Shown one piece after another: positions 12,447-32,000 of a stretch of DNA of 32,000 bases. Made by a program: the position numbers and the translations under genes. The notes below the pieces were generated by a model. That model did not search any database. It was not told the DNA's origin and saw nothing but the letters and a program-made list of their open reading frames with translations. Position 1 is the stretch's first letter; the number at the start of each line of letters is the position of its first letter. This DNA is from Candidatus Lokiarchaeum ossiferum (GTDB lineage Archaea > Asgardarchaeota > Lokiarchaeia > Sigyniarchaeales > Promethearchaeaceae), in the NCBI GenBank assembly GCA_025839675.1, contig CP104013.1:4560001-4592000 (forward strand), given 5' to 3'.

Positions 12447-14564
12447 ATGGAATCTAATCATTTTCTATGGAAAGTGGGATTTTTATCCATTATTTTTCTA
12501 TTCTTTTTACAACTTGCCACGTTCCTAATTGGTGCGATCTATTCTGTCAACCTACTTGGGTCTTCCCTAAATCTGTATGCTGCAGGAATCGCTTGGATGT
12601 TTTCATCTGGATTACTGATTTTTCTTCCCTTAAAAATCAAATTACTTAGGAAACCTGAACTATCTCAAAATTCATTTCTTTCCCGTTTAAATAAATTCTT
12701 TTTCCAGGGATCTTACGAAGAACCTTTGGTTTATCGAAGGATTTCTCAGATATTCGCTATTTTTGTAATTATTTTTCGCTTAATTTCACCTTGGTTAAAA
12801 ACTCGACCGACGATCATTTTTGCAGGCCTTGGAGTTGCGTTTTTCTTCTTGTTCTATCCCCTATACTTACTTCAAATTCCTAAAGATTTCCATAAAGAAG
12901 AAGGCCTTGCTCAGGGTATAAGTTTAGCTATTGCGACGCTATTATCTATTCTTTTTCGCACAATTGGTGCTTCTCTTGATTCTTCTATCTTTGGATGGAC
13001 TCAACTAATTGGATGGGTTTTGGGCATTATTTGCATGTTTGGAATTTTCAATTTTGGAAAAATTATTGAAATCGCGCCCCCTCAAGAAGAAAAAGTTTCA
13101 CTTCCCCCTTCGAGCAAGCAGCAAAACCACCGTAGTTTTTTAGCGAGTTTTTGCCTTCTAAATTTGTTCATTTTGATTGTTTTTGGATTTGAGAGTCCCA
13201 CAGTCTTCGCTCGCTGGACTCAAGGGAATTATATTGCTATTGTTGTAATTTTAGTGATTGTAATTCTGAGTCTAGTTATAGTTTCTGCCCTCAAGCCTGA
13301 TATTATCTCAAAGATACCTCAATGGGGGTTATGGGCATGGAATATCTTCTTCACCATTATGCTCGCCCTTACTATTATTGTGCATACCGTCTCTTTTCCT
13401 AGTGCTCCTGATTCGGCTGTTGTTGTTGTTGGATCTCCATATTGGTATCAGCAGATTCCTCTTTACATGATGCTAATTTCATCACCAATTATATTCCTAG
13501 ATATGGTTTTATTCTGCTCTCAATTGATCCATTCTTCCCCTAAACTCTCAACTTTAACTGGAAGTTTTACCCTTCATGGATTGTATTTTATCATCCTCAT
13601 TTTCATGGCTATTTTTACAAACGTCTGGGGTTATGTGAAACCGGTGAGTAATTTACTTCGAAATCTCTATTGGTTACCCTATTTAATTATCGGATTGGGG
13701 ATGATTGGTGGGGTTTTTGCCATAAATCTTACCCAACATCAATTCAATGTGATTTCAATTCCCAAAATTGGGAAACAAAGTATCGCTATCCTATCTTCAC
13801 TGGTTACTATTGGAATTATCATCAGCGCTTTTCTTGTGGTGCCTTCACCCGCTAGTGATGGCAACGAATCTATTTCGTCAATTACTGTTATGACATATAA
13901 TATTCAAGAAGGAAATAACCAATCGGCTGAAGCTAACTACGCAAGCCAACTCGAAGTAATTCAGAATTCGGGGGCTGATATTATTGCTCTGCAAGAGTGT
14001 GATACTACTCGGATTGGTCTTTGGAATAATGATCTTGTTCGCTATCTTGCTACTGCGCTCGATTATTACTCGTATTTTGGACCGAAAACTGTAACTGGGA
14101 CGTTTGGTACAGCAATTCTCTCCCGATTTCCAATCACTCGTGCTGAAACATTATTTTCTTACAGCAATAAGGATGAAACTGGGACTGCATATGCAACCGT
14201 TTTGATAAATAATGAAGAATTTCATATCTTCTCATCCCATCCGGATGGTAATGCTGATAATCACCGTGAACATATGAATGCAATTCTTGAGAAAATTGAA
14301 GATGAATCTCTGAATCACGTAATTTCAATGGGGGATTTTAATACAAGGCAAGATTCAGAATATTACAACATGTCCTTAACAATGCTAGATGATACATGGT
14401 TACGTGTTTATCCTACTGGTGTTGATGAATTTGGAAATAATATGACCCGGCGCATTGATCATATCTTTATATCTTCTGAATTTGAGGTTGAGAATGTTTG
14501 GGTTATTCCTGAGGGACCTTCCCAATCCGATCACAATGTATTCTGGGCAAAGCTTACGTGGTAA
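12447..14564 (+). CDS. polytopic membrane domain fused to a C-terminal endonuclease/exonuclease/phosphatase (EEP) domain
   Basis: About 460 aa of repeated hydrophobic helices come first. The EEP motifs follow: ITVMTYNIQEG, ADIIALQECD, IFSSHPD, SMGDFNT, RIDHIFIS, SQSDHNVFWAKL. Confidence 0.85.
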   Translation: MESNHFLWKVGFLSIIFLFFLQLATFLIGAIYSVNLLGSSLNLYAAGIAWMFSSGLLIFLPLKIKLLRKPELSQNSFLSRLNKFFFQGSYEEPLVYRRISQIFAIFVIIFRLISPWLKTRPTIIFAGLGVAFFFLFYPLYLLQIPKDFHKEEGLAQGISLAIATLLSILFRTIGASLDSSIFGWTQLIGWVLGIICMFGIFNFGKIIEIAPPQEEKVSLPPSSKQQNHRSFLASFCLLNLFILIVFGFESPTVFARWTQGNYIAIVVILVIVILSLVIVSALKPDIISKIPQWGLWAWNIFFTIMLALTIIVHTVSFPSAPDSAVVVVGSPYWYQQIPLYMMLISSPIIFLDMVLFCSQLIHSSPKLSTLTGSFTLHGLYFIILIFMAIFTNVWGYVKPVSNLLRNLYWLPYLIIGLGMIGGVFAINLTQHQFNVISIPKIGKQSIAILSSLVTIGIIISAFLVVPSPASDGNESISSITVMTYNIQEGNNQSAEANYASQLEVIQNSGADIIALQECDTTRIGLWNNDLVRYLATALDYYSYFGPKTVTGTFGTAILSRFPITRAETLFSYSNKDETGTAYATVLINNEEFHIFSSHPDGNADNHREHMNAILEKIEDESLNHVISMGDFNTRQDSEYYNMSLTMLDDTWLRVYPTGVDEFGNNMTRRIDHIFISSEFEVENVWVIPEGPSQSDHNVFWAKLTW

Positions 14565-14706: not shown

Positions 14707-15069
14707 TTAATTAATTGTTAACCTTTGTGCATCTTTATATGGATCTGGGCATTCTACTGGAACTTCTAATGTTAAAATCCCATTTTTATAATTGGCGGTG
14801 GGTTCTTTATCCAAAGTTGCTGTGCACGAGAACATATATTCTGAGATGTAATCTGTTTCAGCATTGCGATGTGCAATCATACGGACTCGATCCTTTGTTA
14901 CATCAAGATGGATCTTATCTTTATCCACACCTGGAATCTCAAAAGTCAGGGTTTCAACATTTTCTTTGTCATCTTCATCGGTACATCCGCAATCGCAAGT
15001 AGGACAGGCGGGTACCCATATTCTTCTCTTAAAACTAGTAGTTTTTTTTTCTTCATTTTTTTTATCCAT
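14707..15069 (-). CDS. hsp20: small heat-shock protein (Hsp20/alpha-crystallin domain) with an N-terminal Cys cluster
   Basis: ACD-like FEIPGVDKDKIHLDVTKDRVRMIAHR...ANYKNGILTLEVP, with N-terminal CPTCDCGC. ATG 15069 is preceded by AGGTGAT (15080-15074) with a 4-nt spacer. The track's GTG start at 15078 lies inside that SD motif. Confidence 0.75.
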   Translation of the reverse strand: MDKKNEEKKTTSFKRRIWVPACPTCDCGCTDEDDKENVETLTFEIPGVDKDKIHLDVTKDRVRMIAHRNAETDYISEYMFSCTATLDKEPTANYKNGILTLEVPVECPDPYKDAQRLTIN

Positions 15070-15282
15070 TTTAATCACCTAATTATTTGGTTATTTTGGA
15101 TTAATTGATCAATTAGTACAAAATCAACATCAAATAGGTTCACCTTACAGAATAAAAGGACTATCTGGAAATTACAAATAAGAAAAAAAAATCGGAGTTT
15201 TTAAGTAACTTTATGCAACAAAAGATAATTCTAAAACTTTCAATTCAAAGTCTAAATTGAATAAAATGGGAGATATATTTTA

Positions 15283-15495
15283 TTGAGCATAAATTTTAAC
15301 ATAGATGCACTTCTTAACAAATCTGGATTATCCAAAACGGAAATTCAAGGACTTTCTCAACTTTTTCAATTTGTACAATATTTATATGATGATGAAGGCA
15401 ATTTAACAAAAACGTTCAATTTGAATAAAAAGGCAAAGGATCTTCTCAATGACCGCGTGGAGGAATTATTTGAGTATAATATCCGGAATGATTGA
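15283..15495 (+). CDS. small hypothetical protein (70 aa), first gene of the Rad50-like/MoxR/VWA operon
   Basis: TTG start lies 8 nt after GGGAGAT (15268-15274). Its stop TGA 15493-15495 lies 2 nt before the next gene's ATG 15498. No motif recognised. Confidence 0.45.
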   Translation: MSINFNIDALLNKSGLSKTEIQGLSQLFQFVQYLYDDEGNLTKTFNLNKKAKDLLNDRVEELFEYNIRND

Positions 15496-15497
15496 AA

Positions 15498-18113
15498 ATG
15501 ATAAAGAGTATGCGATTAAAGAATTTTCGAAAACACTTAGATTATTCTCTCCAGTTGGCTGATGAGTTTAATTTAATTCATGGGCGAAATAATGCTGGAA
15601 AATCCACTTTATTTTATGCTGTGGAATATTGTCTTTTTGGAACTGTACAAGGGTTCAAAAAAATAAACCAATTAGTTCTCTACGGACAAAAAACAATTGG
15701 AGTGGAGCTATTTTTCAAAGGAAAAGATAATCGACAATATAAATTGCAACGGATGCACAAAATATCTGGTAGAACTAATTCCGCAAAAGGATTTTTTACT
15801 TTGAAAGAACTACAACCTCAAGAAAATGGTATGGATGGCAATATAGATGAAGTGTATATCTTATCTACAGATTTTGGGGATAGAGAAGAAAATTTACGAT
15901 TAAAACTTGTTGAACTCACTGGGATCTCCAAACGATTTTTTGAAGCAGGAATGTTTTTCAAACAAGGCACTATTAGCAATATATTAGATGGTTCCAAGAA
16001 TTTAGATGTTATTTTTGGTATAACTGCTGCTAGTGCTTTAGCAGATACCTTTAAAAACAAAATTAATTTATTGGAAAAAAAAACAGCAGGAATTGGGAAT
16101 ATTGAGATTCTACTAAACAAATTACGGGAAGATAAACAAAATAATCTTGCAGAAATATTGAAACTAAATACAGAGATTAATATTTTCCAAAGCAATGTAG
16201 AAAGTCTCAATAAATTCAAAGATGGTTTTTCTTCTATTTTAAAGCATTTTCTTGCTCTCCAATCGATTTTAAATGAACGTGAAGATTTGCAACATGATAA
16301 AGATAACGTTCAAACAAAATATGAGACAATTCAGGAGAAATTTCTATTAATTCTCAAAGATAATCATTCCTTAGAAGATATGGATGATAAATTTCATGAA
16401 TTTAAGGAATGTGCAAAAGCGATAAACGATGAAATTGAAAATTTTGATAAAAAAAAACATGAAATTGAACAGTTGACACAACAATACCAGTCGAAGATCA
16501 TGGAACTCGAATTAAATCAGAAAAATCGTAATGTATTGCTTGATGAATTGACAGAACAACAAGAGGAATTTGGCGATAGTTGTTCGATTCAGCAAAAATT
16601 GAACCAAAGTGAAATCAAATTATCCAATAATGGTGAAATTGAAGACGAACTTAATCAAAAAATTGACAAACTTGTTTTAGCTGAGAAAAAAATGGAATCT
16701 GATATTGGAAATATTGGAGGTATTCTAGCGAGGCGTCAAAAATCTTCTGAAAGTCCATTATGCGAATATTGTGGAAATTCTATTGATAAAAATGCAGTAA
16801 TTAAGGAAATCAAAAACTTGGAGTATGAAAATTTAAAATTGAAGCAAGAAAAGAAAGAAATAAATCTCCAAATCGAGACATTAAAAGACACAAAAAAAAC
16901 TCTTTTGCATGAAAATCAAAGCATATTGCTCGAGAAACAAAAATTGTCTTTAAAATACACTCAGTTGAAAAAAATTCATGCTCAAATTGCTATTCTTGAT
17001 GGAAATGGTAATATCTTAAGTAAATTATCCGAATATGCGCAAATTCAAGATCAAAATGAAAAAGAATGTAGTGAGATACAAAGAATAATAGCAAACAAGC
17101 AGATTCAGTCACAACAAATATCTGCTCAAATGGCTCAATTAAAAACCCAATGCGATTTAGCTCATGATATGAATATAAGCCTAAAGCAAATTGGGGGAGA
17201 AAAGGAAAAAGTCAATCAAAAAATTCAAGAAAATCTTGACAAGCTTATAGAATCTATTAATCAATTAAAAATTTGTTTTCAATCCCTTAAAGAATCTGAT
17301 TTTCTTGATAAATCTGAAAGAAGTGATGGATTAGTTCAACAAAATCATAATTTTCAAGAGAATGAATTTTCTGATTCTTTTTCTCCAGATATAATATTCA
17401 GTGAATCTCAAGAGGGATTACTGGCGATTTCCACTGATCCATTAGATTTTTTATCAATCAAAAAATTTACTGAAAAAAATGTTGATCTAATTAAAAATCT
17501 CGGTAGTAAATTGGATACCTTGCTTAATGTAAGTCACCAGGAATTGCAGAAGGTTAATAAAAAATTAATTGAAAGTCAACAAAATTTAATGGAATTGGAC
17601 AAAGAAATCAGCCATTACAATGCAAAGTTGATTAATATTCAAAGAATTTTGACTTTACTCTCTAAATATACAAGTTATAAACAGATATTTGAAGAAATTC
17701 AAAACACTATTCGTGAAAATGCTTCTAAAGCCTTAGAAGGAAAAATTTTAGACTATCATAATTGTCTATCTTTGGAATCAGAATTTAGTAAAATTCAAGT
17801 GGATAACACAGATTATAGTTTAAACGTGACCCCAATTGATGCCGGAACCGATGATATATATCCAGCAAATGTTTATCAAGGGGGTGGGCATAAGTTAATG
17901 TTGGGGTTAGCATACAAATTTGCAATTGGTGATCTTATTGGTAATCCTCCTGTATTGCTTATTGATGAACCTACCGAATTTATTGATTCGGAAAATCGTG
18001 AAAATGTATTATCCCATTTACATAACATTACTCAACATAGCCAAGTTCTACTTATCACACACCAAGATGTCGATAAAATTACTTCCCAACAAAAAATCAG
18101 AATTCAAACATAG
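15498..18113 (+). CDS. Rad50/SbcC-like ABC ATPase with a long coiled coil and a central CxxC zinc hook
   Basis: Walker A GRNNAGKST, Q-loop FFKQGT, about 600 aa of heptad-rich K/E/Q/L sequence, and CEYC at the coiled-coil midpoint. The C-terminal lobe has QGGGHK in place of LSGGE, Walker B VLLIDEP and H-loop LLITHQD. Alternative TTG start at 15492. Confidence 0.8.
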   Translation: MIKSMRLKNFRKHLDYSLQLADEFNLIHGRNNAGKSTLFYAVEYCLFGTVQGFKKINQLVLYGQKTIGVELFFKGKDNRQYKLQRMHKISGRTNSAKGFFTLKELQPQENGMDGNIDEVYILSTDFGDREENLRLKLVELTGISKRFFEAGMFFKQGTISNILDGSKNLDVIFGITAASALADTFKNKINLLEKKTAGIGNIEILLNKLREDKQNNLAEILKLNTEINIFQSNVESLNKFKDGFSSILKHFLALQSILNEREDLQHDKDNVQTKYETIQEKFLLILKDNHSLEDMDDKFHEFKECAKAINDEIENFDKKKHEIEQLTQQYQSKIMELELNQKNRNVLLDELTEQQEEFGDSCSIQQKLNQSEIKLSNNGEIEDELNQKIDKLVLAEKKMESDIGNIGGILARRQKSSESPLCEYCGNSIDKNAVIKEIKNLEYENLKLKQEKKEINLQIETLKDTKKTLLHENQSILLEKQKLSLKYTQLKKIHAQIAILDGNGNILSKLSEYAQIQDQNEKECSEIQRIIANKQIQSQQISAQMAQLKTQCDLAHDMNISLKQIGGEKEKVNQKIQENLDKLIESINQLKICFQSLKESDFLDKSERSDGLVQQNHNFQENEFSDSFSPDIIFSESQEGLLAISTDPLDFLSIKKFTEKNVDLIKNLGSKLDTLLNVSHQELQKVNKKLIESQQNLMELDKEISHYNAKLINIQRILTLLSKYTSYKQIFEEIQNTIRENASKALEGKILDYHNCLSLESEFSKIQVDNTDYSLNVTPIDAGTDDIYPANVYQGGGHKLMLGLAYKFAIGDLIGNPPVLLIDEPTEFIDSENRENVLSHLHNITQHSQVLLITHQDVDKITSQQKIRIQT

Positions 18114-18126
18114 GATTGAAAAAACA

Positions 18127-18672
18127 ATGCAAACTAAAATGGACAATTATTCCGATCAAAACCAACAAAATAATGCGGTTGAAGAGTTCAAGGCAAAATT
18201 TAAGCAAATTTATGCTGGTCCTAATTATGTGGTGGAGGAAATGCTTGAAAATGTACAATCCGATCCCCAACCCCTCGGAAATACTTCCGAAATGCTGATC
18301 CAAAAATTTATGATGGAGATCATTCGGAAACTTGTGAAATTTTTGCAATCAAATAAGATTCGGCATGATTTCTTTAAACTAGGTTTAATGAAAGCAGATC
18401 CAATCTGGACCCCTGTCAGAAAAATGGTGATTGTAAAAAGAATCGAAGAATTTCGTCAAAAAAAGGTGGTTCAAAAGGGAAAGAAATATGATATTTCGGA
18501 TCTGAAATCTTCGATGCTTGGAAAAGAAGTGGTTAAGCGGGTTGGATTTGGAAATCGGAATATTTTATCAAAAGTGGAATATGCTTTGGTGACCGAACAA
18601 ATAAAAAAACTAAAATATGAATCACCAATAGTGATAAAACCTACTACGACCGAGATATTTTTTAAAAAATAA
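18127..18672 (+). CDS. hypothetical protein (181 aa), operon member
   Basis: ATG lies 13 nt after the Rad50-like stop. The track ORF starting at 17920 would overlap the previous gene out of frame. No motif recognised. Confidence 0.55.
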   Translation: MQTKMDNYSDQNQQNNAVEEFKAKFKQIYAGPNYVVEEMLENVQSDPQPLGNTSEMLIQKFMMEIIRKLVKFLQSNKIRHDFFKLGLMKADPIWTPVRKMVIVKRIEEFRQKKVVQKGKKYDISDLKSSMLGKEVVKRVGFGNRNILSKVEYALVTEQIKKLKYESPIVIKPTTTEIFFKK

Positions 18673-18677
18673 CTTTT

Positions 18678-19616
18678 ATGGAGAGAATTCAAATGAGTGC
18701 AGAGAATCAAACAAAACCTATTTCAGAATTTGCGAAATTGATGGAATCGAAACGAATTGTTGATATTCGGGAAAATATTAATATTGTAATGGAAGGTCAA
18801 TATGAATATGCTTATAATGCGATGTTAGATGCGTATAATGCAGGGTTGTTTGTTGGACTAGTTGGACCCGTGGGCTGTGGAAAAACTGCTTTATGTCGGA
18901 AATTTGCTTATGATATGAATCGCGATTTTTATTGGGTAACCTTTTCAGATTTAGTGCGCCCGGCGACATTAATCGGTTCATTTGATCCTACACTTGTATT
19001 TAAGTATGGTTTTTCAGCAGAAGCATATGTACCCGGACCCTTTACATTAGCTGCATTAAAAGGGGGCGTGTTTTTAGCCAATGAGCTGAATCGGGGTGAT
19101 GAATATGTGCTAAATAGTATGTTGGATGCAATGGAAGAACGTCGATTATATATTCCCCAATTAAAATCATGGCTTGAAGTAGATTCTAATTTTTACGTAA
19201 TTTCGGCCATGAATCCCTCTGAAATGCGAGGTACTCGAAAATTACCATCTGCAATAAAGGATCGAATAAAAGTCTGGATTCACTTGGGGTATCCTTCCCG
19301 TGCTTTAGAACAAAAAATCATTCAAAGTAATTGTTCAGAATACAATTTATCTGCCATGACTCACGAAAAAATATTAGAATTGATGATTCAGTGTCGTAAT
19401 GATCCGAATGTTGAAAAACCTCCTAGTCTTCGGACTAGTATTGGTCTGGCCCGATTTGTGGCTGAACGTTCGAAGCGATTAAAGGTTCCTATTGATAATC
19501 AATTATTGGCAGATTCAGCAAAACTCATATTAAAAGATTCACTGGAGTTACGTCCAGGGAAAAATCTTGATACATTTATTAAAGATCTTCTAATTCGGGT
19601 AGTTGGAGTTGCCTAA
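18678..19616 (+). CDS. MoxR/CbbQ-type AAA+ ATPase (AAA_5/AAA_3-like)
   Basis: Walker A GPVGCGKTA, Walker B region VFLANELNRGDEYVLNSMLDAMEERRLYIP (MoxR-type hhhDEINR...LLEAMEER), sensor-1 region VISAMNP. Alternative ATG at 18693. Confidence 0.8.
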   Translation: MERIQMSAENQTKPISEFAKLMESKRIVDIRENINIVMEGQYEYAYNAMLDAYNAGLFVGLVGPVGCGKTALCRKFAYDMNRDFYWVTFSDLVRPATLIGSFDPTLVFKYGFSAEAYVPGPFTLAALKGGVFLANELNRGDEYVLNSMLDAMEERRLYIPQLKSWLEVDSNFYVISAMNPSEMRGTRKLPSAIKDRIKVWIHLGYPSRALEQKIIQSNCSEYNLSAMTHEKILELMIQCRNDPNVEKPPSLRTSIGLARFVAERSKRLKVPIDNQLLADSAKLILKDSLELRPGKNLDTFIKDLLIRVVGVA

Positions 19617-19647
19617 ATAAATTTCTTAATTGAAGGGATGAGAATCA

Positions 19648-22236
19648 TTGTTAGGTAAAAATCAATCTTTAATTGGGGACCCGCCATGTTTAAACAATAT
19701 TCAAGGTGTAATTCTTACCCCTATCCAATTTTCCATTGAATTTATTTTTAGAATGCGCAAGTCTAAATCACTCTTATTTAATGTACCAAGTTCAAGACAA
19801 GCTCTTGCCATCCCAAAGCTTCTAACGGCCATGTACTATAGGAAAAATATTCTCACTCCTGAAAATTTTATTACTTCTGCTGTGATAACTACTCCCATTG
19901 AGGATCAGATTGTTGCTAAGCGAATAGCCACTGAGATTTTATTTCCCGATAACAGATCGATTGATTTATCTGGTTCTACAATCGCCTCACCAACTGCAAG
20001 ATCTATTTCTGGAAAAAATGTGTCTCAAGTTAAAAAAGAGGATCTATTTGATGATTTTTTAGCAGAAGTTGATGATTTAGGTCTTGATTTGAATGAAATT
20101 AATTCTCAAGCTTTTGATGGAACTGCTGATCTCAAAGAATTCGAATATCTTATGGATTTTATCCAAGATTTTTACGAAAAAGCTGCAAATCAGCAAGATC
20201 CATTCTTATCTATAGCCAGCATTTTTGATCAGCGCCAAGGGTATATAGATATGTTACATCGAGGCATCAATACTTTACAGAAAGCTCAAGATCATGCCCA
20301 CCAATTAGTATCACAATCTGTACAACAACTTTCTCCAAAAGATGTTCAAGCTGCTACAAATTTAGGTTGGAGTGATGAGTTGCTTACACAAACGCATGCA
20401 CCATGGATAAAAATGGGCCTGGAATATTGTGCAAAATCTTCAGAATATGGACAACATCTAATTGATCTTATCAAAACTGCTGATATTGGTACGTGTACAA
20501 AAACTCTTCAGTTTATTAAAGATTTGGGTGAAAAAGAATCGATATTAAAGTGTCATGCTGCTCAAATTCAACAAAAAATTAGATCGTTATCTGATGTTTG
20601 GGAAATGTCACAGATTTCTGACCAAATCCCTGTATTTAACAAAAAAAAAGTATTTAAACAAAGTTTGCACAAGAATCTCGAAAATGCGTTTGATATAGCT
20701 CGAAGAATGTCTTCAAAATTTGATTCCCCAATGGCTCATGAATTGCACGATCAGTGGGCCCAGCAAAATCAGTCTCCCGATTTGGCAGATCTCTATCATG
20801 CACAATATCCTGTTCCACAGTGGGATCAAAATTTAACTCAGTTCGTAAAGGATGCTTTGGCTAAAATTTCAACTTCTCAGGACCCTCAATCTCAGAAGAA
20901 CTCCGCTCAAATTAATGAATTAATTCAAAATCTAATGCAATATTCAGAAAGATGTTTTTATTCTCATTGTGCTGAGAAATTTAAAGAAGAAGCATCTCAA
21001 TCCGGTTTTGTTTCTTTAAAAAACTGTGCTTCTCCTGAAGAATTCATACACCAAGTTAAATTCCTACTGAAAATACAGATTCCCATGGTTATTAGTAAAA
21101 TGTATGATATTGGAACTCAAAAAGGAATTTCGGAAGAACGTCTCATGGAAATTATTGGTGGTTCTTTTGAAATTTTGAAGAAGTTATTTGCAAAACAATT
21201 GAACTCCCATGAAGTTTTTTCAAAACTTCTTGACACATGTAAATCTTTATCTAAAAGTCAACTTGCTGATCTAACTCAGATAGCGGCAAACAATAAAAAT
21301 TTCTATGGTTTAAGTGCTTTAGCCCATAAAGATTTCAGTTGTACAATGAATTGTATTTCTGGAATGAATCAAAATGCTCAAAATTTGTTTATTGACAGTT
21401 TATCGGCTGGACCTGGTGAAAATCTTCTTTTGCAATGGTTTCATCACCGTCGGAATATTCCAAAAGACATGAAAAAGCGGATTCGAGAATTAACTAAATC
21501 CATGTTGATTAGAATTGCTTTGAATATTGTTTCGAATCAAAGGGGAACTGGTGAAAAAGGATTGATTCCCACCTCGAAATTACGGCCTTATATTGAAGGA
21601 GATCCAATGGATTTGGTCGATATTGACGCTTCCATTGAAAACATCATTACATCAGGAAAAAATCTTGAACATGTTTGTGGGGATGATTTATTCGTCCAAG
21701 ATTCTCAAAAAGGGCGAGTATCCATTTGTTTCCTATTGGATATTTCAGGATCCATGAGCGGTGATAAATTAGCTGCTTGTTCCATTGCCACTTTAGTCCT
21801 AATTGGGCATCTTAAAACCGAAGAAGTAGCCATTGCATTTTTTGAATCTGATACCCATACTGTTAAATCATTTGATGATGAGAAAGATCTTGATGATATT
21901 GCTGACGAACTTCTTGATCTTCATGCACGAGGAGGAACTCAAGTACAAAAGGCTCTTGAATGGGGTCATTCACAACTAGAAAGTTCAACAGCTGAATACA
22001 AGTTATGTTTTTTGTTAACAGATTGTGAATTCTTTGAATCTTTTAATGTTGTTAGAAAGGAACTTGAGAAATATGTAAATTTACGCGCTCATTTTCTTCT
22101 TGGTGTGAATACACGATCTTATTCAAGAAGCTATGCAAATTTAATTCTTGATACAACCCAAGGAGAATTACTTAAAATCCTCAATATTGCTGAAATTCCG
22201 CAAATCATTATGGAAACCTTGGAAAAAATTGGATAA
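19648..22236 (+). CDS. large helical protein with a C-terminal von Willebrand factor A (VWA) domain carrying a MIDAS motif
   Basis: VSICFLLDISGSMSG (D-x-S-x-S at nt 21739-21753), later ARGGTQ and LLTDCE. The N-terminal ~650 aa are helical and Q-rich with an acidic stretch DLFDDFLAEVDDLGLDLNE. TTG start; the N-terminus is uncertain. Confidence 0.75.
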   Translation: MLGKNQSLIGDPPCLNNIQGVILTPIQFSIEFIFRMRKSKSLLFNVPSSRQALAIPKLLTAMYYRKNILTPENFITSAVITTPIEDQIVAKRIATEILFPDNRSIDLSGSTIASPTARSISGKNVSQVKKEDLFDDFLAEVDDLGLDLNEINSQAFDGTADLKEFEYLMDFIQDFYEKAANQQDPFLSIASIFDQRQGYIDMLHRGINTLQKAQDHAHQLVSQSVQQLSPKDVQAATNLGWSDELLTQTHAPWIKMGLEYCAKSSEYGQHLIDLIKTADIGTCTKTLQFIKDLGEKESILKCHAAQIQQKIRSLSDVWEMSQISDQIPVFNKKKVFKQSLHKNLENAFDIARRMSSKFDSPMAHELHDQWAQQNQSPDLADLYHAQYPVPQWDQNLTQFVKDALAKISTSQDPQSQKNSAQINELIQNLMQYSERCFYSHCAEKFKEEASQSGFVSLKNCASPEEFIHQVKFLLKIQIPMVISKMYDIGTQKGISEERLMEIIGGSFEILKKLFAKQLNSHEVFSKLLDTCKSLSKSQLADLTQIAANNKNFYGLSALAHKDFSCTMNCISGMNQNAQNLFIDSLSAGPGENLLLQWFHHRRNIPKDMKKRIRELTKSMLIRIALNIVSNQRGTGEKGLIPTSKLRPYIEGDPMDLVDIDASIENIITSGKNLEHVCGDDLFVQDSQKGRVSICFLLDISGSMSGDKLAACSIATLVLIGHLKTEEVAIAFFESDTHTVKSFDDEKDLDDIADELLDLHARGGTQVQKALEWGHSQLESSTAEYKLCFLLTDCEFFESFNVVRKELEKYVNLRAHFLLGVNTRSYSRSYANLILDTTQGELLKILNIAEIPQIIMETLEKIG

Positions 22237-23533: not shown

Positions 23534-24055
23534 TTAACTGCGCATGAATGAAGGTAACATAAGATTGAAAATTTGTAATATTTCCTTTAACTTTGATTTT
23601 TCATTCACTAATGTACCAATCAATATTGTTTTCATAAGAGAATCTTTGCTTAAAGGGCCACTCGTGAATAGTGCTGATGATGGAGACCAAATGAGCAAAT
23701 ATTTCACATTTGGATTATTAATTAAATCGATTCCTTGAGTTGCTTTTAATTTATCATATATTTTAGCATATTCATCAGGCCATAATCGTCTATCGTTCAA
23801 GACAATTTGGACTTTAATTCCATTTTTTGCCCGATCTTGTAAAATCAAAGCAAATTCTTCCGTTATATAAGGTGCAACAATTTTAATTTCAGTTGCATTG
23901 GTTATAATTTCCGCAATATGGTTATTCATCTCGTGTTCTTTTCCCGCCAGTCCTCCGGTAAAAATTTTAATTGCTCCCACTAAGCGGAGAAGTCGGTTTT
24001 CGAGATCTTCAATTCTCTTTTTTAATTTCATATTTTCGGCTGCTAATAAAGACAT
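23534..24055 (-). CDS. coiled-coil plus degenerate PLD-like domain protein (TrmB middle-domain-like, no HTH)
   Basis: N-terminal heptad helix AENMKLKKRIEDLENRLLRL is followed by EIKIVAPYITEEFALILQDRAKNGIKVQIVLND. NVKYLLIWSPSSALFTSGPL aligns to the PLD H-x-K-x4-D...GSxN motif with the His and Asp replaced. Confidence 0.45.
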   Translation of the reverse strand: MSLLAAENMKLKKRIEDLENRLLRLVGAIKIFTGGLAGKEHEMNNHIAEIITNATEIKIVAPYITEEFALILQDRAKNGIKVQIVLNDRRLWPDEYAKIYDKLKATQGIDLINNPNVKYLLIWSPSSALFTSGPLSKDSLMKTILIGTLVNEKSKLKEILQIFNLMLPSFMRS

Positions 24056-24120: not shown

Positions 24121-26697
24121 CTATTCTAGTTTTAAAGAAGGATCTCCAATAAAAACGTAGTGTGATTCTCGTAAAATCATTTTTAATCTTGAATCTTCTT
24201 CATTCTCATCTGAAAAGCTTTGGGATATATTGAATAATTGTTTGTTGACTTTAAGATGGGCGCTACCTATAGATTCATTAAGAAAGATATGATTAATAAA
24301 TTCCCCCAAGTATAATTTTAGCATATCATTGAATTCATTAGATATTCGAGCAAAAATTCCAATGAAATGACGTGAGCTGATTGATTTGGTAATGTTATAG
24401 ATTTGTGTGAAAAATCGTGGGATTGATTTATTACTTTCATCGATTATCCGGACATCTAAAATCAACAAAGGTCTAAAATAGGGTAATCCTTGAAGTTCGT
24501 TTCGTTGTTTTGCGTAAGATAACATATCAATTATTTCTTGTATGCTGAGTACCTCATTGTTTGAAGTAAGGAAGTAGGATTGGCTAGGATTCTGATCTAA
24601 ATAGAACATATTTGCAGAAATGTGAATTATATTATAAATACCTGATGTAATTTCTTTTTCAATACTATCTTTTGAACTATATGAGGGATCAATAGAAGAA
24701 AAACGATCTACTAAATTCTGAAGATTATTAATTTTCTCCTCAATAAATTTCCGTTGTATTTCACCATTTTGGAACTTAAATAATGGGCAATATTGTTGTT
24801 CTTCCTCGTTCCAAACATGGGGAAACTTCTGATTTAAGTCACCTATACTTAGCATGGTGAATTTCAGATTAATTTCATCTTGTGATTTTCCCACCTTGAT
24901 TTTTTCCATTGCAAGTTTGGGTTCTCGAAATCTATATCCAAAAGCGAATTTTGATCCAAATGATGATCTTTGATCATTTAGCATTTCAAGAGGAAAATTC
25001 GGCTCATCCATAATTACATAAACTTCGGGGGTATGATCCGATCTTAAATTCAATTCTTCAATAAAATCTCGTATATTTTGAGGTAAAAAAAGATAGGCCA
25101 ACATGCCAAATTGTTGTTGTTCTAAGATAACAGTCTCATTTTTTTCAGAATGGGTTGCATTATCTATGGTCGTGCCATAAACAGGAAGATTTAGATATAA
25201 TTCATTTAAATATGGTTCATCCCAGTATTCCTTGGTTTCAATATTGTCCATTTTCGAAAACCCTGATTTATAGTAAATTTCGGAAAATAATTTAATCGGT
25301 TTTCGGGATGGAATCCTTAATTTTAATAAAATCTCTGAAGGCATCATTCCGCCAATATCCGCTTCTTTTCGGGAAATTCGACGCTCTTTTATACGATTAA
25401 TTGTAAAAGGAAGTTGTTCTTCTATAAGTTGAATAAAGCATGGGTGATCTTGAATTCCCAATTGTTTAGCACTTAACGTAACTATCTCCAAGTAACCTTC
25501 TTCAAAAAACCCTCGATGTAATGCCGCCCACCAGAAGTCTTCTTTTGAAGTAAAAATGTGGCCTCGACATATTAAATAATATTCATTGCGTGCATAGCAA
25601 TAATCCTTAAAAGAATAATAATCATCAGGAACTATGAGCAAATCTCTGTATTCTTTGATGGCTCGCACAAAATATTTTTTGTCTTTTAAATTTCTGAATT
25701 TTTTTGCCGCTTCAGCCCAAATACTTACCAAATATGTGGGAAATCCCTTAAAATTTGTGAAAAATGTGGCTAAATGTTCATACGCAAGGAATGCTGTCTG
25801 ATAGCTGCCTTGTCTGTAGCAGGTTTTTATAAATTCCCTTAAAAATTTTTTTGCTTTTGATAATTCATTATTATTTTTTAATTCTTCACAATAATTTTGC
25901 ACGATAGAATAAGCCCAAGAATTTTCTTTAATCATTTGAAGATTTACAATTGTTTGTTGCGTCAAATCTAAATTTTGTCCCGGATCCATAAGATGAACTT
26001 TTTCTTTGATCAATATATGAAAAGCTTCTTGAACGCTTTTATCAATTTTATTAAGTGAAACCAAATAAATGGTCTCAATAAATTCAATGTATTTAATAGA
26101 ACCCTCAAAAAACTGTTGATAAATATTTAAGCTAACACTTTTTAGTAAAATGGGGCGTTGATCATGGGCAATTTTTCTTAATATTTCAGAGAGTTTGGCT
26201 AAAGTACGTTCAAAATAATCATTTCGTTGATAATTTTTCTTGAAAAATAAAGACAATAGTAAAAGTTCAATGGTTTCTTTAAAATAATCCGCACGAGCGG
26301 TAAAAATTGCTAATGAATCTAAGAAATTCGCAATGCTGAAATCATTTGAAAAGCCAATTTTAACAAGAACTTTGGCTAATCGAAGCCCATTATAAATCAA
26401 ACGCGAAAAATCTTGAATTAAAAAAAGTATTTCAAATAAAAAATTATAGGCATTATAGATAAGAGGCCAATTAGCATAAAAATTTTTAACCAAGACTCGT
26501 AGATGATGCTCCCATAGATCAATTAAAATTGTATATCGGCGCATAATTTCGGAATTAGACAAATTACTTGTCTGTATTTCTTTAATTGTTGTGTTACACA
26601 ATTGAATTGCCCAATATTGTTGTTCTTGATTTAATAGTTTATCAATATGTGATGAAATTTCATCAAAATCATCGATTACATTTGTACCGTGGATCAT
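24121..26697 (-). CDS. large helical-repeat protein with a C-terminal CHAT-like (caspase-fold) domain apparently lacking the catalytic His-Gly/Cys
   Basis: ATG 26697 lies 1 nt after the actin-like stop. The C-terminal third follows the CHAT pattern: LAYLFLPQ..., VYVIMDEPNFPLEML, FAFGYRF, NIIHISANMFY, SIQEIIDML, RPLLILDVR. The N-terminal ~500 aa are alpha-helical and TPR-like by composition. Confidence 0.45.
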   Translation of the reverse strand: MIHGTNVIDDFDEISSHIDKLLNQEQQYWAIQLCNTTIKEIQTSNLSNSEIMRRYTILIDLWEHHLRVLVKNFYANWPLIYNAYNFLFEILFLIQDFSRLIYNGLRLAKVLVKIGFSNDFSIANFLDSLAIFTARADYFKETIELLLLSLFFKKNYQRNDYFERTLAKLSEILRKIAHDQRPILLKSVSLNIYQQFFEGSIKYIEFIETIYLVSLNKIDKSVQEAFHILIKEKVHLMDPGQNLDLTQQTIVNLQMIKENSWAYSIVQNYCEELKNNNELSKAKKFLREFIKTCYRQGSYQTAFLAYEHLATFFTNFKGFPTYLVSIWAEAAKKFRNLKDKKYFVRAIKEYRDLLIVPDDYYSFKDYCYARNEYYLICRGHIFTSKEDFWWAALHRGFFEEGYLEIVTLSAKQLGIQDHPCFIQLIEEQLPFTINRIKERRISRKEADIGGMMPSEILLKLRIPSRKPIKLFSEIYYKSGFSKMDNIETKEYWDEPYLNELYLNLPVYGTTIDNATHSEKNETVILEQQQFGMLAYLFLPQNIRDFIEELNLRSDHTPEVYVIMDEPNFPLEMLNDQRSSFGSKFAFGYRFREPKLAMEKIKVGKSQDEINLKFTMLSIGDLNQKFPHVWNEEEQQYCPLFKFQNGEIQRKFIEEKINNLQNLVDRFSSIDPSYSSKDSIEKEITSGIYNIIHISANMFYLDQNPSQSYFLTSNNEVLSIQEIIDMLSYAKQRNELQGLPYFRPLLILDVRIIDESNKSIPRFFTQIYNITKSISSRHFIGIFARISNEFNDMLKLYLGEFINHIFLNESIGSAHLKVNKQLFNISQSFSDENEEDSRLKMILRESHYVFIGDPSLKLE

Positions 26698-26698
26698 A

Positions 26699-27781
26699 TT
26701 ATTCCCATTCCATCCTTTTTTGCGAATTACGATAAATTTGTGATGCACCTTTCCAAATTGCGTTGGGATTTTGACTATCTTCGAATATTTGCACATTCAA
26801 TGTGATTGGGAAGCGTTTCTTAATTTGTTGTTGCAATTTAGATTTTAAATTTGGAATTTTGACCCCTTGACCACAAAGAACTATATTTTCGAGCATTATT
26901 GGTATTTGATCTCTCTCCCATGCTCTAATTGATCTCATAATAAATTCAATTAGATTATCGGATCGAATATGCGCGAGCTCTGGGATGAAGTATAATTCAC
27001 TCGCAAGAAATTTTTCTTTGTTGATTGTCAACTGATTTCCATCCGGTAAATAAATTGTAAAATCGTATTCTTGTGATCCTGTAGCAATTTCGTCAATTAT
27101 TTCATCAATTCTTAAAGAAGATTCAACTACATCTTCCTTTATTTTTTGGGCAATACTATATAGTGGATGAGTGGAAGAATATTGATATTTTTCAAATATC
27201 ACATCAATAAGATATTGCGTGATATGGTGGCCTCCGATAGGAAAAATAAAATTACTTTCAAAATTTGGAAATCCTTTAAAAATACCTTCAATTCGCGTTG
27301 AAAAATGTCCAAAATCAATGATTGTTCCTGTATCTTTTCCTAAGGCGGTCAAAATTGCTGCAGAATTTGGAATAAAGGCAAATTTTGGAAAACTCATAAT
27401 TTCTTGCAATATTCGTTTTAGTTCATTTAATTCTATTTTTGAAATATAAGATGGATAAACAATGATTAGATTTGATTCTGAAGGGATCCAGCCTTGATTT
27501 TTGAAGATTTCAGCTAAAAAATATGCAAAGGATGAGAAATCTTTGGTCTTAAGAAAATATTTAATGAGCAAGGTATCTTTAAATTTGAGTGCTTTATTTC
27601 CATAATGACGTTCTTTTCCCATCTTGGATAAACCTGTTTGGGATGAAATTTTAACTATGGGTTCATCTGAATCTGCAAATATTGATGGGTTGATAATTTT
27701 AGGCTCATAATCTCCCGCTATACCTATTTTCGTTTCAAAACTTCCTAATTCAACAAGAATGTCAAATTTTACGTCTGTGAT
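26699..27781 (-). CDS. divergent actin-family ATPase (actin/Arp-like); start probably ATC 27781
   Basis: Colinear with actin. The matches are DILVELGSFETKIGIAGDYEPKIINPSIFA (phosphate-1), TGTIIDFGHFSTRIEGIF (phosphate-2), IFPIGGHHITQYL, IYLPDGNQLTINKEKFLASELYFIPEL, NIVLCGQGVKIPNLKSKLQQQI and NAIWKGASQI. The first ATG (27622) would delete phosphate-1. AGGGGAT (27792-27786) plus a 4-nt spacer precedes ATC 27781. Confidence 0.8.
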   Translation of the reverse strand: MTDVKFDILVELGSFETKIGIAGDYEPKIINPSIFADSDEPIVKISSQTGLSKMGKERHYGNKALKFKDTLLIKYFLKTKDFSSFAYFLAEIFKNQGWIPSESNLIIVYPSYISKIELNELKRILQEIMSFPKFAFIPNSAAILTALGKDTGTIIDFGHFSTRIEGIFKGFPNFESNFIFPIGGHHITQYLIDVIFEKYQYSSTHPLYSIAQKIKEDVVESSLRIDEIIDEIATGSQEYDFTIYLPDGNQLTINKEKFLASELYFIPELAHIRSDNLIEFIMRSIRAWERDQIPIMLENIVLCGQGVKIPNLKSKLQQQIKKRFPITLNVQIFEDSQNPNAIWKGASQIYRNSQKRMEWE

Positions 27782-29863: not shown

Positions 29864-30775
29864 TCAAAAATCATCATTTGAGAATATTTTATGATATTTC
29901 CATTCATTCCGATTTATGAAATTAATTTTCCTAATTTCCAATATTCTCTCCTCGAATTGCTTTAAAGAATGGCAATCAGAACCGATAGAAAATGGAATGT
30001 CATTGGCGAGAAGGTGATGGAACATATCCAAGTTTGGAAATGACTCTTTCCATGGATAATAAAGCCCACTTAGATTTATCTCATACAACATATTTGAGTT
30101 CCTCACCAAATGACCTAATTCGATTGTTGGAAAGTATTGTCTGTATTCGGGAGTGAACCAAATATGATGATTTGTTAAAAATCGAAAAATGACATCTGGA
30201 TGGGCCACTACATCAAAAAGCTGACTGTGAATCAATTTATGCAATTTATCAAAATATTTGCCAAGAACTTTTGAAAAAGATCCATGTTTTTCAACCAACC
30301 ATTGTAAATCTCTTAGAACTGTAATTGCTCGGAAATCTTCTATCTCATGGGCACTTCCTACAATCAAATCGAATTCATTTTGATAGTCCTCTAAAAAATT
30401 CTGGAGTTGGTCTTCTCTTTCGGGATAATATTCTAATTCCAAGCCTGATGAAATATGTTTGTAGTGTTCTTTTGCTGAATCTATTTCTTCTAAATATTCT
30501 GATAAGGTTTCAGGATTTAAGATAGAATTTCGCGTGTTAATGTGGGATTTCTCAAAACATGCCAATTCGTAGTGATCTGCAAATCCAATATGAATCTTAT
30601 ATTTTTCAGATAATTGAGCATATTTTTCAATTGTGGCTCCTGAAGAAGCATCTATGGACCAATTTGTGTGTACATGGAGATCAAAATCCCAATTAGGTGC
30701 AATTTTTCGGAATATTCTGTAATGATTCGCTCTATTTGGCATCTCATTCATCTTTCTCGGAATTAACGTTTCCAT
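29864..30775 (-). CDS. PHP-domain phosphoesterase (HisJ-type histidinol-phosphatase family)
   Basis: DLHVHTNWSIDA, GFADHYE, GSAHEI, VAHPD, SIGSDCHS. Alternative ATGs at 30751 and 30742. All three options overlap or abut the Hef stop (30746-30744). Confidence 0.8.
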   Translation of the reverse strand: METLIPRKMNEMPNRANHYRIFRKIAPNWDFDLHVHTNWSIDASSGATIEKYAQLSEKYKIHIGFADHYELACFEKSHINTRNSILNPETLSEYLEEIDSAKEHYKHISSGLELEYYPEREDQLQNFLEDYQNEFDLIVGSAHEIEDFRAITVLRDLQWLVEKHGSFSKVLGKYFDKLHKLIHSQLFDVVAHPDVIFRFLTNHHIWFTPEYRQYFPTIELGHLVRNSNMLYEINLSGLYYPWKESFPNLDMFHHLLANDIPFSIGSDCHSLKQFEERILEIRKINFINRNEWKYHKIFSNDDF

Positions 30776-32000
30776 GGTCTAAATAATCGGCATTTGCATA
30801 CTTGAAAATATTTTGTGCAATAGCTGGGCCGATATTTGGGACTTTTTGAATTTTTTTTTCGTTGGCATTCAATAACTCACGCAACGTTCTAAATTCAATC
30901 AATAAATCTTTAGCTCTCGAAGCATTTATTCCTGGAATTCCAGAAATTATGAATTCTAATTGTTCGGGTATTTTTTCGGGAAATTTTTTGAATCTAATAG
31001 AAAAATGTTTTGAAGGTTTGTCTGATTGTTCTTTTTTAGCTAAAGCTATTAAAATCTCAGCTGTTTCTTCAGGGGAGGTTGTTTGATATAAAAATATCCT
31101 CATTTTTAACAAAATACTGGTTAAAGTTCCTAATACGGCTGCTCGATTAATTGATGTTATCGAATTTATTCCTCCCTCAATTATTAAAATTGGAATCGTG
31201 AATTGAGTCTTTAGCCGTTGAAGTTCGTTAAAAAGTCGACCATCTTTTATTGAACTAATAAAATCCGGAATTGATTTTCGCTCTATTCCACACTGCTCCG
31301 ATATTATATAATCTCCCGTTGGTAATTTTTGGATTGATACATTTGCATTTCTTTCAGCTAACTCACGTGTTACTGAAGATGCCGTTTCTCGAGAATCAAC
31401 TAAGATATAAGGTTTTGATTTGTCTAGGGGTATAGAAATCTTTCCTAAATTATCTGATTGGAGTAGATCTGGTGCAGAATTTGGTTCTTTTGGATCATTT
31501 TGCAGTTTAGAGTCTTTTTCTTGGGGGGATTTTATTTCCTTATTTGGGTTATTTGGTGTTTTTTTTAAAAATGCAGTTAAGCTCTTTTGCCCCCGATTTT
31601 CTGATGAATTTGCCATTGGTTGTATTTCTCTTCGAATATCATTTAAAACTCTTTTCATTTCCTTCTCACGATGTTTTTCAGCCCAAAAATATCCTTCTTC
31701 CCGAGTTCCCATGGTTTTAAAAATTATGACTTTTCCCGATCGGTTTCGTCCAGTTCTTCCTCGTCTTTGGATTGCACGAATTTCACTAGGTACCACATCA
31801 AAGAAGATTACAACATCACATTCTGATATGTCTAATCCTTCTTCTGCAACTGATGTCGCTACCAATGTATTATATACTCCACTCTTAAACTGTTGTAAAA
31901 TTTCAAGTTGTTGTTTTTGAGACAAGCCTTTTTCTTTTCCTTTTTTCTGTTGTCCCACAAAGCTATGGGGGTGGATTAATGTATTTTTCTCAATTTGCTC
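30744..32000 (-). CDS. hef: Hef helicase/nuclease, C-terminal part (helicase C-lobe, linker, ERCC4 nuclease, HhH2); 5' end outside window
   Basis: Frame is open to nt 32000 (EQIEKNTLIHPHSFVGQ...). Helicase motifs VATSVAEEGLDI and QRRGRTGR are followed by a disordered linker. The ERCC4 region is ILVDSRE...GDYII...GIERKSIPDF...PILIIEG, and HhH2 is GIPGINASRAKDLL...VPNIGPAIAQNIF. Confidence 0.9.
   Translation of the reverse strand, partial: EQIEKNTLIHPHSFVGQQKKGKEKGLSQKQQLEILQQFKSGVYNTLVATSVAEEGLDISECDVVIFFDVVPSEIRAIQRRGRTGRNRSGKVIIFKTMGTREEGYFWAEKHREKEMKRVLNDIRREIQPMANSSENRGQKSLTAFLKKTPNNPNKEIKSPQEKDSKLQNDPKEPNSAPDLLQSDNLGKISIPLDKSKPYILVDSRETASSVTRELAERNANVSIQKLPTGDYIISEQCGIERKSIPDFISSIKDGRLFNELQRLKTQFTIPILIIEGGINSITSINRAAVLGTLTSILLKMRIFLYQTTSPEETAEILIALAKKEQSDKPSKHFSIRFKKFPEKIPEQLEFIISGIPGINASRAKDLLIEFRTLRELLNANEKKIQKVPNIGPAIAQNIFKYANADYLDHGNVNSEKDE

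Follow-up and report, generated by a model that had tools for sequence, protein, structure and literature searches.

Why would an archaeon keep a zinc-hook ATPase resembling Rad50 in the same gene string as an AAA+ ATPase of the MoxR type and its von Willebrand (VWA) partner? This question is raised by a stretch of 32,000 nucleotides (nt) from Candidatus Lokiarchaeum ossiferum (contig CP104013.1, positions 4,560,001 to 4,592,000), referred to here as the window, in which five genes between positions 15283 and 22236 encode, in order, a 70-amino-acid (aa) protein (p70), a Rad50/structural maintenance of chromosomes (SMC)-like ATPase, a 181-aa protein (p181), a MoxR ATPase and a VWA protein with a metal ion-dependent adhesion site (MIDAS). 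The operon is one selected unit, as the same order recurs in 64 lineages from two domains of life and amid unrelated flanks. With regard to function, the explanation favoured here, at a likelihood put a little below even, is that the Rad50 paralogue forms a complex on DNA with p70 and p181, and that this complex is remodelled by the MoxR-VWA pair, probably in the metabolism of DNA ends or breaks.

The five open reading frames (ORFs) all lie on the + strand and are separated by 2, 13, 5 and 31 nt, the first of these junctions becoming a 4-nt overlap if TTG 15492 serves as the start of the ATPase gene. On the upstream side, an AT-rich region of 204 nt (15079..15282, no strand assigned) lies between p70 and a divergent HSP20 gene (14707-15078, - strand) and presumably holds the promoter. 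On the downstream side, a convergent gene for a 381-aa membrane protein ends 5 nt past the stop codon of the VWA gene. A preliminary description of this DNA had listed five same-strand genes bounded by a gap of about 200 nt and a convergent gene; its coordinates and junctions proved exact on re-reading, and both boundaries were recovered. A GGGAGA stretch occurs ~9 nt ahead of the TTG start of p70. A scan for sigma-70 promoters and terminators gave no enrichment and is uninformative for an archaeon. The same gene strings are found on public contigs, where the gene caller skipped p70, and the VWA protein corresponds to NEF87_003928 at 100% identity.

Related loci were gathered by a VWA-profile scan of one genome per species, which gave 20 loci, and by a MoxR-profile scan of metagenomes, which gave 57 more. 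They were annotated with profiles of the five families and collapsed at 97% MoxR identity into 64 lineages, of which 37 are low-GC and taken as Asgard (Loki, Thor) and 27 are high-GC and taken as bacterial. The VWA-profile scan recovered genomes labelled Promethearchaeota or archaea, one Thorarchaeota, one Heimdallarchaeota and two Myxococcota (Kofleriaceae and Haliangiales), and roughly half of the 57 metagenome loci have a G+C content of 58-73%. Among lineages with at least 3.6 kb of sequence upstream of MoxR, the five-gene order, SMC-like gene and p70 included, is kept by 23 of the 25 that are low-GC and by all 12 that are high-GC. The VWA gene follows in every lineage with at least 2.7 kb downstream (27/27 low-GC, 14/14 high-GC), and such recurrence goes far beyond chance. 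Three Promethearchaeota contigs carry the same five genes with different flanks, and every homologue of the ATPase and the VWA protein that a word-based search returned belongs to Promethearchaeota, with identities of 35-48%.

The preliminary description had proposed that the Rad50-like, 181-aa, MoxR and VWA genes be surveyed for co-occurrence in other genomes. They were found in the same order in Asgard archaea and bacteria, and p70 with them. The module is not Asgard-specific, as a deep bacterial clade carries it as well. In a rough neighbour-joining tree of MoxR, a diverse bacterial clade is sister to a diverse Asgard clade, a split that fits an old inter-domain transfer rather than a recent one. 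In one of the bacterial copies (Kofleriaceae; L023, 6425-8455), the SMC-like ORF looks frameshifted across Walker A, and either an assembly error or a pseudogene is possible; the Haliangiales copy of this ORF (L024) is intact.

Two exceptions to the common order were observed. One is a Loki locus (L019, 9142-9909) in which the VWA gene and a 5′-truncated MoxR gene are preceded by unrelated sequence; either the operon has decayed there or the assembly is chimeric. L025 (7957-15503) and L074 (7110-11749) represent the second exception, a Heimdall-type variant in which a longer p181-like protein, MoxR and the VWA protein are encoded in that order. In L025 a WD40 beta-propeller protein of 1009 aa comes next, and L074 ends inside a WD40-like ORF. 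The SMC-like gene and p70 are absent from L025, where three proteins without known family (554, 412 and 242 aa) are encoded upstream. The core of p181 is homologous to the C-terminal part of the Heimdall protein encoded ahead of MoxR (hhalign probability 96%, E 3e-9). Judged by sequence, p181 is a third conserved partner of this MoxR-VWA subfamily, the Heimdall variant included.

What, then, are the five proteins? The domain and architecture calls first proposed for them all proved correct by profile and motif checks. The Rad50/SMC-like ABC ATPase (15498..18113, + strand; 871 aa) was assigned from Pfam, PDB matches and motifs, its start at ATG 15498 being picked by homology (MIKSMRLKNF versus MIESIRLKNF), with TTG 15492 and ATG 15510 as alternatives. 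The motifs, all on the + strand, comprise Walker A (GRNNAGKST, 15582-15608), the Q-loop (15954-15968), a signature-like QGGGHKL (17877-17897), Walker B (LLIDEPTE, 17952-17978) and the H-loop (LLITHQ, 18048-18065). A CxxC zinc hook, CEYC (residues 422-425; 16761-16772, + strand), is the sole CxxC of the protein and stands midway between two coiled-coil-like stretches, which, from their sequence character and length, are predicted to be the long arms that flank the hook. Exactly one CxxC is present in 42 of 42 distinct full-length homologues checked, and Walker A, Walker B, the Q-loop and the H-loop are kept in every homologue examined. Pfam places the protein in SMC_N/AAA_27/AAA_23, and among solved structures it is closest in sequence to the heads of archaeal Rad50 (E 2e-13). 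The NCBIfam equivalog models of Rad50 score it at 60-64 bits (best 63.8), against cut-offs of 700-1087 that are not reached.

The MoxR-type AAA+ ATPase (18678..19616, + strand; 312 aa) was identified from Pfam, PDB and motifs. It matches AAA_5 (4e-19, 69 bits) and AAA_3 (4e-14, 53 bits), both over their cut-offs, and its PDB matches are MoxR 2r44, NorQ and CbbQ. Walker A (GPVGCGKT, 18864-18887), the sensor-1 region (SAMNP, 19203-19217) and the sensor-2 region (SLRTS, 19425-19439), all on the + strand, are conserved across homologues, and identity between the Loki and Myxococcota proteins is 58-60%. Walker B is atypical: FLANELNR (residues 132-139; 19071-19094, + strand) has Asn where an AAA+ Walker B normally has the Mg-coordinating Asp, and all homologues that include this region, Asgard and bacterial alike, have FLANE. 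Midasin was considered as the nearest relative of this protein and rejected. Its best single AAA domain reaches 37 bits, compared with 39 for NorQ and 59.5 for 2r44, and the whole-protein E value of 5e-23 is an artefact, because matches to several midasin AAA domains were summed.

The VWA/MIDAS adaptor protein (19648..22236, + strand; 862 aa) was characterised with Pfam, alignments and AlphaFold. Residues 694-792 match VWA_2 at 37.5 bits, over the cut-off, together with VWA and, weakly, VWA_CoxE. The MIDAS motif DISGS (21739-21753, + strand) is complemented by T764 and D792; D698, S700, S702, T764 and D792 are invariant in alignments, and a DxSGS MIDAS is present in 45 of 45 homologues. The AlphaFold model (pLDDT 73) resolves four regions on the + strand, namely a conserved N-terminal helical domain (residues 25-98; 19720-19941), a disordered acidic linker (residues 101-160; 19948-20127), an all-alpha region (residues 161-630; 20128-21537) and the VWA domain (residues 690-862; 21715-22233). 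Within the last of these is a conserved loop modelled at low confidence (residues 734-745; 21847-21882, + strand). In Foldseek, the VWA domain is nearest to NorD in NorQD complexes, with the MIDAS domain of MDN1 also matched, and the helical part gives generic solenoids only. Residues 1-680 have no match in PDB sequence or Pfam profile searches. The family is small: of 1.84 billion sequences, 126 representatives match at E<=1e-30, and the few to which a taxon name is attached belong to Loki-, Promethe- or Thorarchaeota. By their domain and motif content, the MoxR and VWA genes qualify as a MoxR-VWA/MIDAS pair.

The two small proteins differ in charge. Protein p70 (15283..15495, + strand) begins with TTG, is acidic (pI 4.8) and apparently helical, and carries the motif YLYDDExNLTK at residues 33-43 (15379-15411, + strand). 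Its gene immediately precedes that of the SMC-like ATPase in loci from Loki, Thor and bacteria, and the acidic motif is kept in archaea and bacteria as YL.DD..NLTK, a pattern of conservation by which p70 is a genuine conserved gene. No significant match was found in Pfam, NCBIfam or PDB, and PADLOC gave only a non-significant PDC-M41A (E 0.006). Protein p181 (18127..18672, + strand) is basic (pI 9.8), and in archaea and bacteria alike its gene stands after the SMC-like gene and ahead of MoxR. Its core is conserved and reads W..P..K....RI.EL...KV.KKGKKY.I..LK.T..G, while the C-terminus ends in an invariant tail, PTxTExFF (18640-18663, + strand), shared by both domains. A word-based search for its homologues returned one protein; Pfam, NCBIfam and PDB gave no family match, and PADLOC gave nothing. 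Kinship between p181 and p70 was also considered, and no relationship was detected by hhalign.

The surroundings of the operon offer a further clue. Genes that flank it in the window have no relatives in the first 24 related loci examined, clustering of the bacterial flanks gave no family shared by four or more loci, and the neighbours sampled in two Myxococcota genomes are unrelated housekeeping genes. Recurrent neighbours are found only in low-GC loci, and these are an SF1B helicase, Mre11 and a full-length Rad50. The helicase-Mre11-Rad50 cluster adjoins the operon in 12 of the 37 Asgard lineages: directly upstream on the same strand in nine loci, directly downstream on the same strand in L033, and downstream on the opposite strand in L008 and L011. 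In five loci an ATP-dependent DNA ligase is adjacent. The linked Rad50 aligns end to end with archaeal Rad50 models (E 3e-62), and the linked Mre11 is matched at 2e-24. The lineages concerned are spread over several Loki sub-clades of the MoxR tree. As the cluster occurs in three arrangements, proximity has outlasted rearrangement, which suggests a functional link. The preliminary description had remarked on the lack of Mre11; this is true of the window but not of the family at large, as the 12 linked lineages attest. Such adjacency favours the DNA-tethering reading that was offered at that time over the conflict reading offered beside it.

Some features of these clusters may be recorded in passing. 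The gene preceding Mre11-Rad50 encodes an SF1B (IGHMBP2/Upf1-like) helicase of ~1,500 aa in L004 (1-18379), L008, L012, L033, L034, L040 and L043, and a conserved 251-aa protein without known family and an ATP-dependent ligase are often near the Mre11-Rad50 of Lokiarchaeia. HerA and NurA are the canonical archaeal partners of Mre11-Rad50, and in L004 neither was called as a separate gene beside it.

Does any described system already account for this set? Each half has clear counterparts. As in NorQ-NorD, CbbQ-CbbO, RavA-ViaA and CoxD-CoxE, a MoxR of the AAA_5/AAA_3 kind stands beside a partner with a C-terminal VWA domain and a complete MIDAS. NorD is the closest structural match for the VWA domain, and the model suggests a shared layout of N-terminal target-side domain, linker and VWA domain. 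In contrast with those pairs, the candidate client here is a zinc-hook Rad50-like ATPase with two small proteins rather than a metalloenzyme, the ~680-residue N-terminal part of the adaptor is without known family, and Walker B contains Asn-Glu. Midasin (Rea1/MDN1) likewise combines a ring of AAA_5 type with a MIDAS that takes hold of an acidic residue in the client so as to extract it, and its tail runs from a helical region through an acidic region to the MIDAS, which is also the order in the VWA protein. No special relationship to midasin is indicated, however, its single-domain score being under that of MoxR 2r44.

For the other half, long antiparallel coiled coils, centred on a CxxC hook, apparently divide the ABC head, an architecture that recalls Rad50-Mre11 and SbcCD. 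Unlike those complexes, the operon has no Mre11/SbcD (Metallophos) gene within it in any lineage, and a nearby Mre11, where present, comes with its own full-length Rad50, to which the operon ATPase is distantly related (E 7e-4 to 3e-7). The signatures also differ, GGGHKL standing where Ser-Gly-Gly would be expected of Rad50. Lamassu (LmuB) and Wadjet (JetC) share an SMC-like ATPase with the operon, the JetC match being N-terminal and weak (~22 bits). Among the proteins of the operon and its downstream neighbours scanned with PADLOC, no LmuA, LmuC, JetA, JetB or JetD was found, so the operon is neither Lamassu nor Wadjet because their partner proteins are absent, and neither system is known to include a MoxR-VWA pair. 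The exclusion of Wadjet/MksBEF and Lamassu made in the preliminary description is therefore upheld. Its wider view, that no known system fits, agrees with the outcome of the literature and database searches: no named system was assigned by Pfam, by NCBIfam (all scores far below cut-offs) or by PADLOC (a generic LmuB only). A combination of SMC-like, MoxR and von Willebrand components was not found in the literature searched, the ABC-ATPase classification of 2020 lying outside it, and a wider search returned only an unrelated paper on BREX. The near-obligate coupling of the two known halves, a hooked Rad50-like ATPase and a MoxR-VWA remodeller, appears to be undescribed, and the p70 and p181 families and the ~680-residue adaptor region are, as far as profile searches can tell, new.

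How might such a unit work? The five genes would make up one machine with two ATPase modules. In the first, the Rad50 paralogue would dimerise through its zinc hook and close its ABC heads on ATP in the manner of Rad50, and by the same analogy it would probably clamp or tether DNA. Acidic p70 and basic p181 would be its accessory subunits. In the second, a MoxR hexamer would act with the VWA/MIDAS adaptor in the style of NorQ-NorD, CbbQ-CbbO, RavA-ViaA and midasin, the VWA domain docking onto the AAA+ ring. A ligand carboxylate completes the metal site in the MIDAS of integrins and midasin; here, the MIDAS site would grip an acidic residue of a client peptide, for which the invariant Glu of PTxTExFF in p181 and the YLYDDE of p70 are candidates, and the conserved N-terminal domain of the VWA protein would hold the target as a second contact. 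ATP hydrolysis would pull or twist the adaptor, and the Rad50-like complex would be assembled, opened or unloaded as a result. The analysis shows the gene content, the motifs, conservation, synteny and the linkage to the Mre11-Rad50 cluster; that the proteins touch one another, that DNA is bound, which molecule is the client and which process is served we infer from these features.

Parts of the scheme have precedents. Cryo-EM has revealed that the VWA domain of NorD puts a finger into the NorQ pore, and that activity of the NorQ ring twists and stretches the NorD linker to act on the client (PMC13036017). The VWA protein of the operon likewise has, in its predicted structure, a target-side N-terminal domain, a disordered linker and a poorly modelled but conserved VWA loop. 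MIDAS sites are also reported to bind extended or unstructured peptide (PMC7159879). No nuclease, protease, TIR or other effector domain was detected in the five proteins by Pfam, PADLOC or NCBIfam, in line with the preliminary description, in which none had been recognised. The only enzymes are the two ATPases, which fits a mechanical machine. Because the operon sits beside helicase-Mre11-Rad50 and ligase genes in many Lokiarchaeia, the likeliest arena for such a machine is DNA ends or breaks. A bolder version of the proposal, which is considered rather unlikely, is that a dedicated MoxR/MIDAS remodeller, acting as midasin does, loads or extracts the Rad50 paralogue on DNA ends by means of p181 and p70 handles that the MIDAS recognises, together with Mre11-Rad50, helicase and ligase, in an unrecognised end-tethering or end-joining pathway, and that the machine is ancient in Asgard archaea and bacteria.

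Several observations weigh against remodelling of a Rad50 paralogue at DNA ends. The linkage to Mre11-Rad50 is absent from the window, from Thor-type loci and from all 27 bacterial lineages, and it may partly reflect shared ancestry within Lokiarchaeia. In the Heimdall-type variant, other genes and a WD40 protein replace the SMC-like gene and p70, and the MoxR-VWA-p181 core can therefore serve other partners. The Asn at the Asp position of the MoxR Walker B may mean that its ATPase behaviour is unusual. The structure model of p181, computed from p181 and one 98%-identical sequence, has a pLDDT of 43 and is unusable. Finally, the family is rare and patchy, a pattern typical of accessory or defence modules as well.

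This last point leads to the explanation that the operon is an NTP-dependent conflict (defence) system, in which the hooked SMC-like ATPase would sense foreign DNA, much as happens in Lamassu, Wadjet or Rad50-type immunity, and the MoxR-VWA switch would activate an unrecognised or distant effector. Besides a patchy distribution with inter-domain transfer, it can draw on the PADLOC matches of the ATPase to LmuB (6.5e-21, 73 bits), mad3, GajA, PtuA and JetC, generic as these are, and on the variation among lineages in coiled-coil length and in the central part of the VWA protein. A class of predicted conflict systems is built on MoxR-vWA cores that have a conserved third partner, and for this class Kaur et al. 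(2020) described four ternary types, VMAP, iSTAND, FtsH and beta-propeller (PMC7159879). The operon resembles these in its core, in a third partner (p181), in its variable parts, in the WD40 beta-propeller protein of the Heimdall-type variant and in a weak bpMoxR match (15.3 bits, with the Pfam cut-off of 27 not reached). Diagnostic features of the published systems are absent, however: Pfam found no VMAP-C, iSTAND, FtsH, vWA-fused beta-propeller or effector in the five proteins, and the P-loop is GPVGCGKT here whereas theirs is GxxxTAKS (PMC7159879). SMC, Rad50, SbcC and ABC ATPases are not mentioned in that paper. Conserved neighbours also lack an effector domain, the only recurrent ones being repair-type genes, and PADLOC recognises neither the VWA protein nor p181. 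Neither defence islands nor mobile elements surround the operon in the flanks sampled, no relatives of the operon were found on viral contigs, and conservation is strong, as seen in MoxR across the domains of life. A defence role is regarded as the main rival, though an unlikely one, its likelihood being put at about a quarter.

Two other explanations keep one half of the operon in its accustomed role. If the ATPase belonged to a chromosome-organisation or cytoskeleton complex related to SMC, of the coalescin ClsN/Sph type (ASRP) or in the style of arcadin-4, the MoxR-VWA pair would be its assembly chaperone. Zinc-hook SMC-related ASRPs, among them coalescin ClsN and Sph1/2, do exist in archaea (PMC9389158). 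The ATPase scores the NCBIfam ASRP model (55.9 bits) about as well as it does the Rad50 models, a weak match to the arcadin-4 model was obtained, and an actin-family gene is found 4.5 kb downstream in the window. But the ASRP score is far under the cut-off of 300, the operon family occurs in bacteria too and always with p70, p181, MoxR and VWA, no actin gene is near any related locus examined, and the recurrent neighbours are Mre11-Rad50, helicase and ligase rather than chromatin or cytoskeletal genes. All this makes such a complex improbable. Less probable still is that some unrelated client is matured by the MoxR-VWA pair, for example through insertion of a metal or cofactor in the way of NorQD, CoxDE and chelatases, and that the Rad50-like gene just shares the operon. 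Most characterised MoxR-VWA pairs are indeed enzyme maturation chaperones, and the weak VWA_CoxE match is in keeping with such a role. Yet in none of the lineages is a candidate metalloenzyme conserved close to the operon, and of the 37 lineages from two domains that can be tested, 35 have the SMC-like gene and p70 together with MoxR-VWA, which is not expected if the functions were unrelated.

Other genes of the window can be described briefly. An actin-family gene (307 aa, 26699-27622, - strand; Pfam Actin 4e-22) is followed after 1 nt on the same strand by a gene for an 858-aa protein without known family (24121-26697, - strand) that has a weak CHAT-like match. The two look like a possible operon, which does not recur in related loci examined, and actin was rejected as a linked gene of the five-gene operon since the window neighbours do not recur in those loci. 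A 705-aa protein (12447-14564, + strand) joins a long N-terminus of multi-pass membrane type to an endonuclease/exonuclease/phosphatase domain at its C-terminus, and this domain also matches the model of the eukaryotic PGAP2IP C-terminal domain (1.4e-18). A 173-aa protein (23534-24055, - strand) gives weak PLD-like, FilR1-middle and PADLOC DrmC matches (best 2.8e-4) that are below curated thresholds. The end of the window cuts a Hef/XPF-like gene (30744-31958, - strand) with Helicase_C, ERCC4 and HhH domains, and this gene is adjoined by one for a PHP-domain protein (29864-30775, - strand). Both are of DNA-repair type and lie ~8.5 kb from the operon.

Action of the MoxR-VWA pair on the Rad50 paralogue, if it takes place, would represent a new means of controlling the loading or removal of SMC-family clamps, and would provide MoxR-VWA biology with a client linked to nucleic acid. 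Should the bolder version of the proposal be true, an AAA+ unfoldase-like partner would for the first time be seen to regulate an SMC-family complex. Bacterial carriers of the operon could allow genetic tests that are not yet possible in Asgard archaea. In Lokiarchaeia, the adjacency of Mre11-Rad50, helicase and ligase genes points to an unexplored side of how DNA breaks are handled in the archaea most closely related to eukaryotes.

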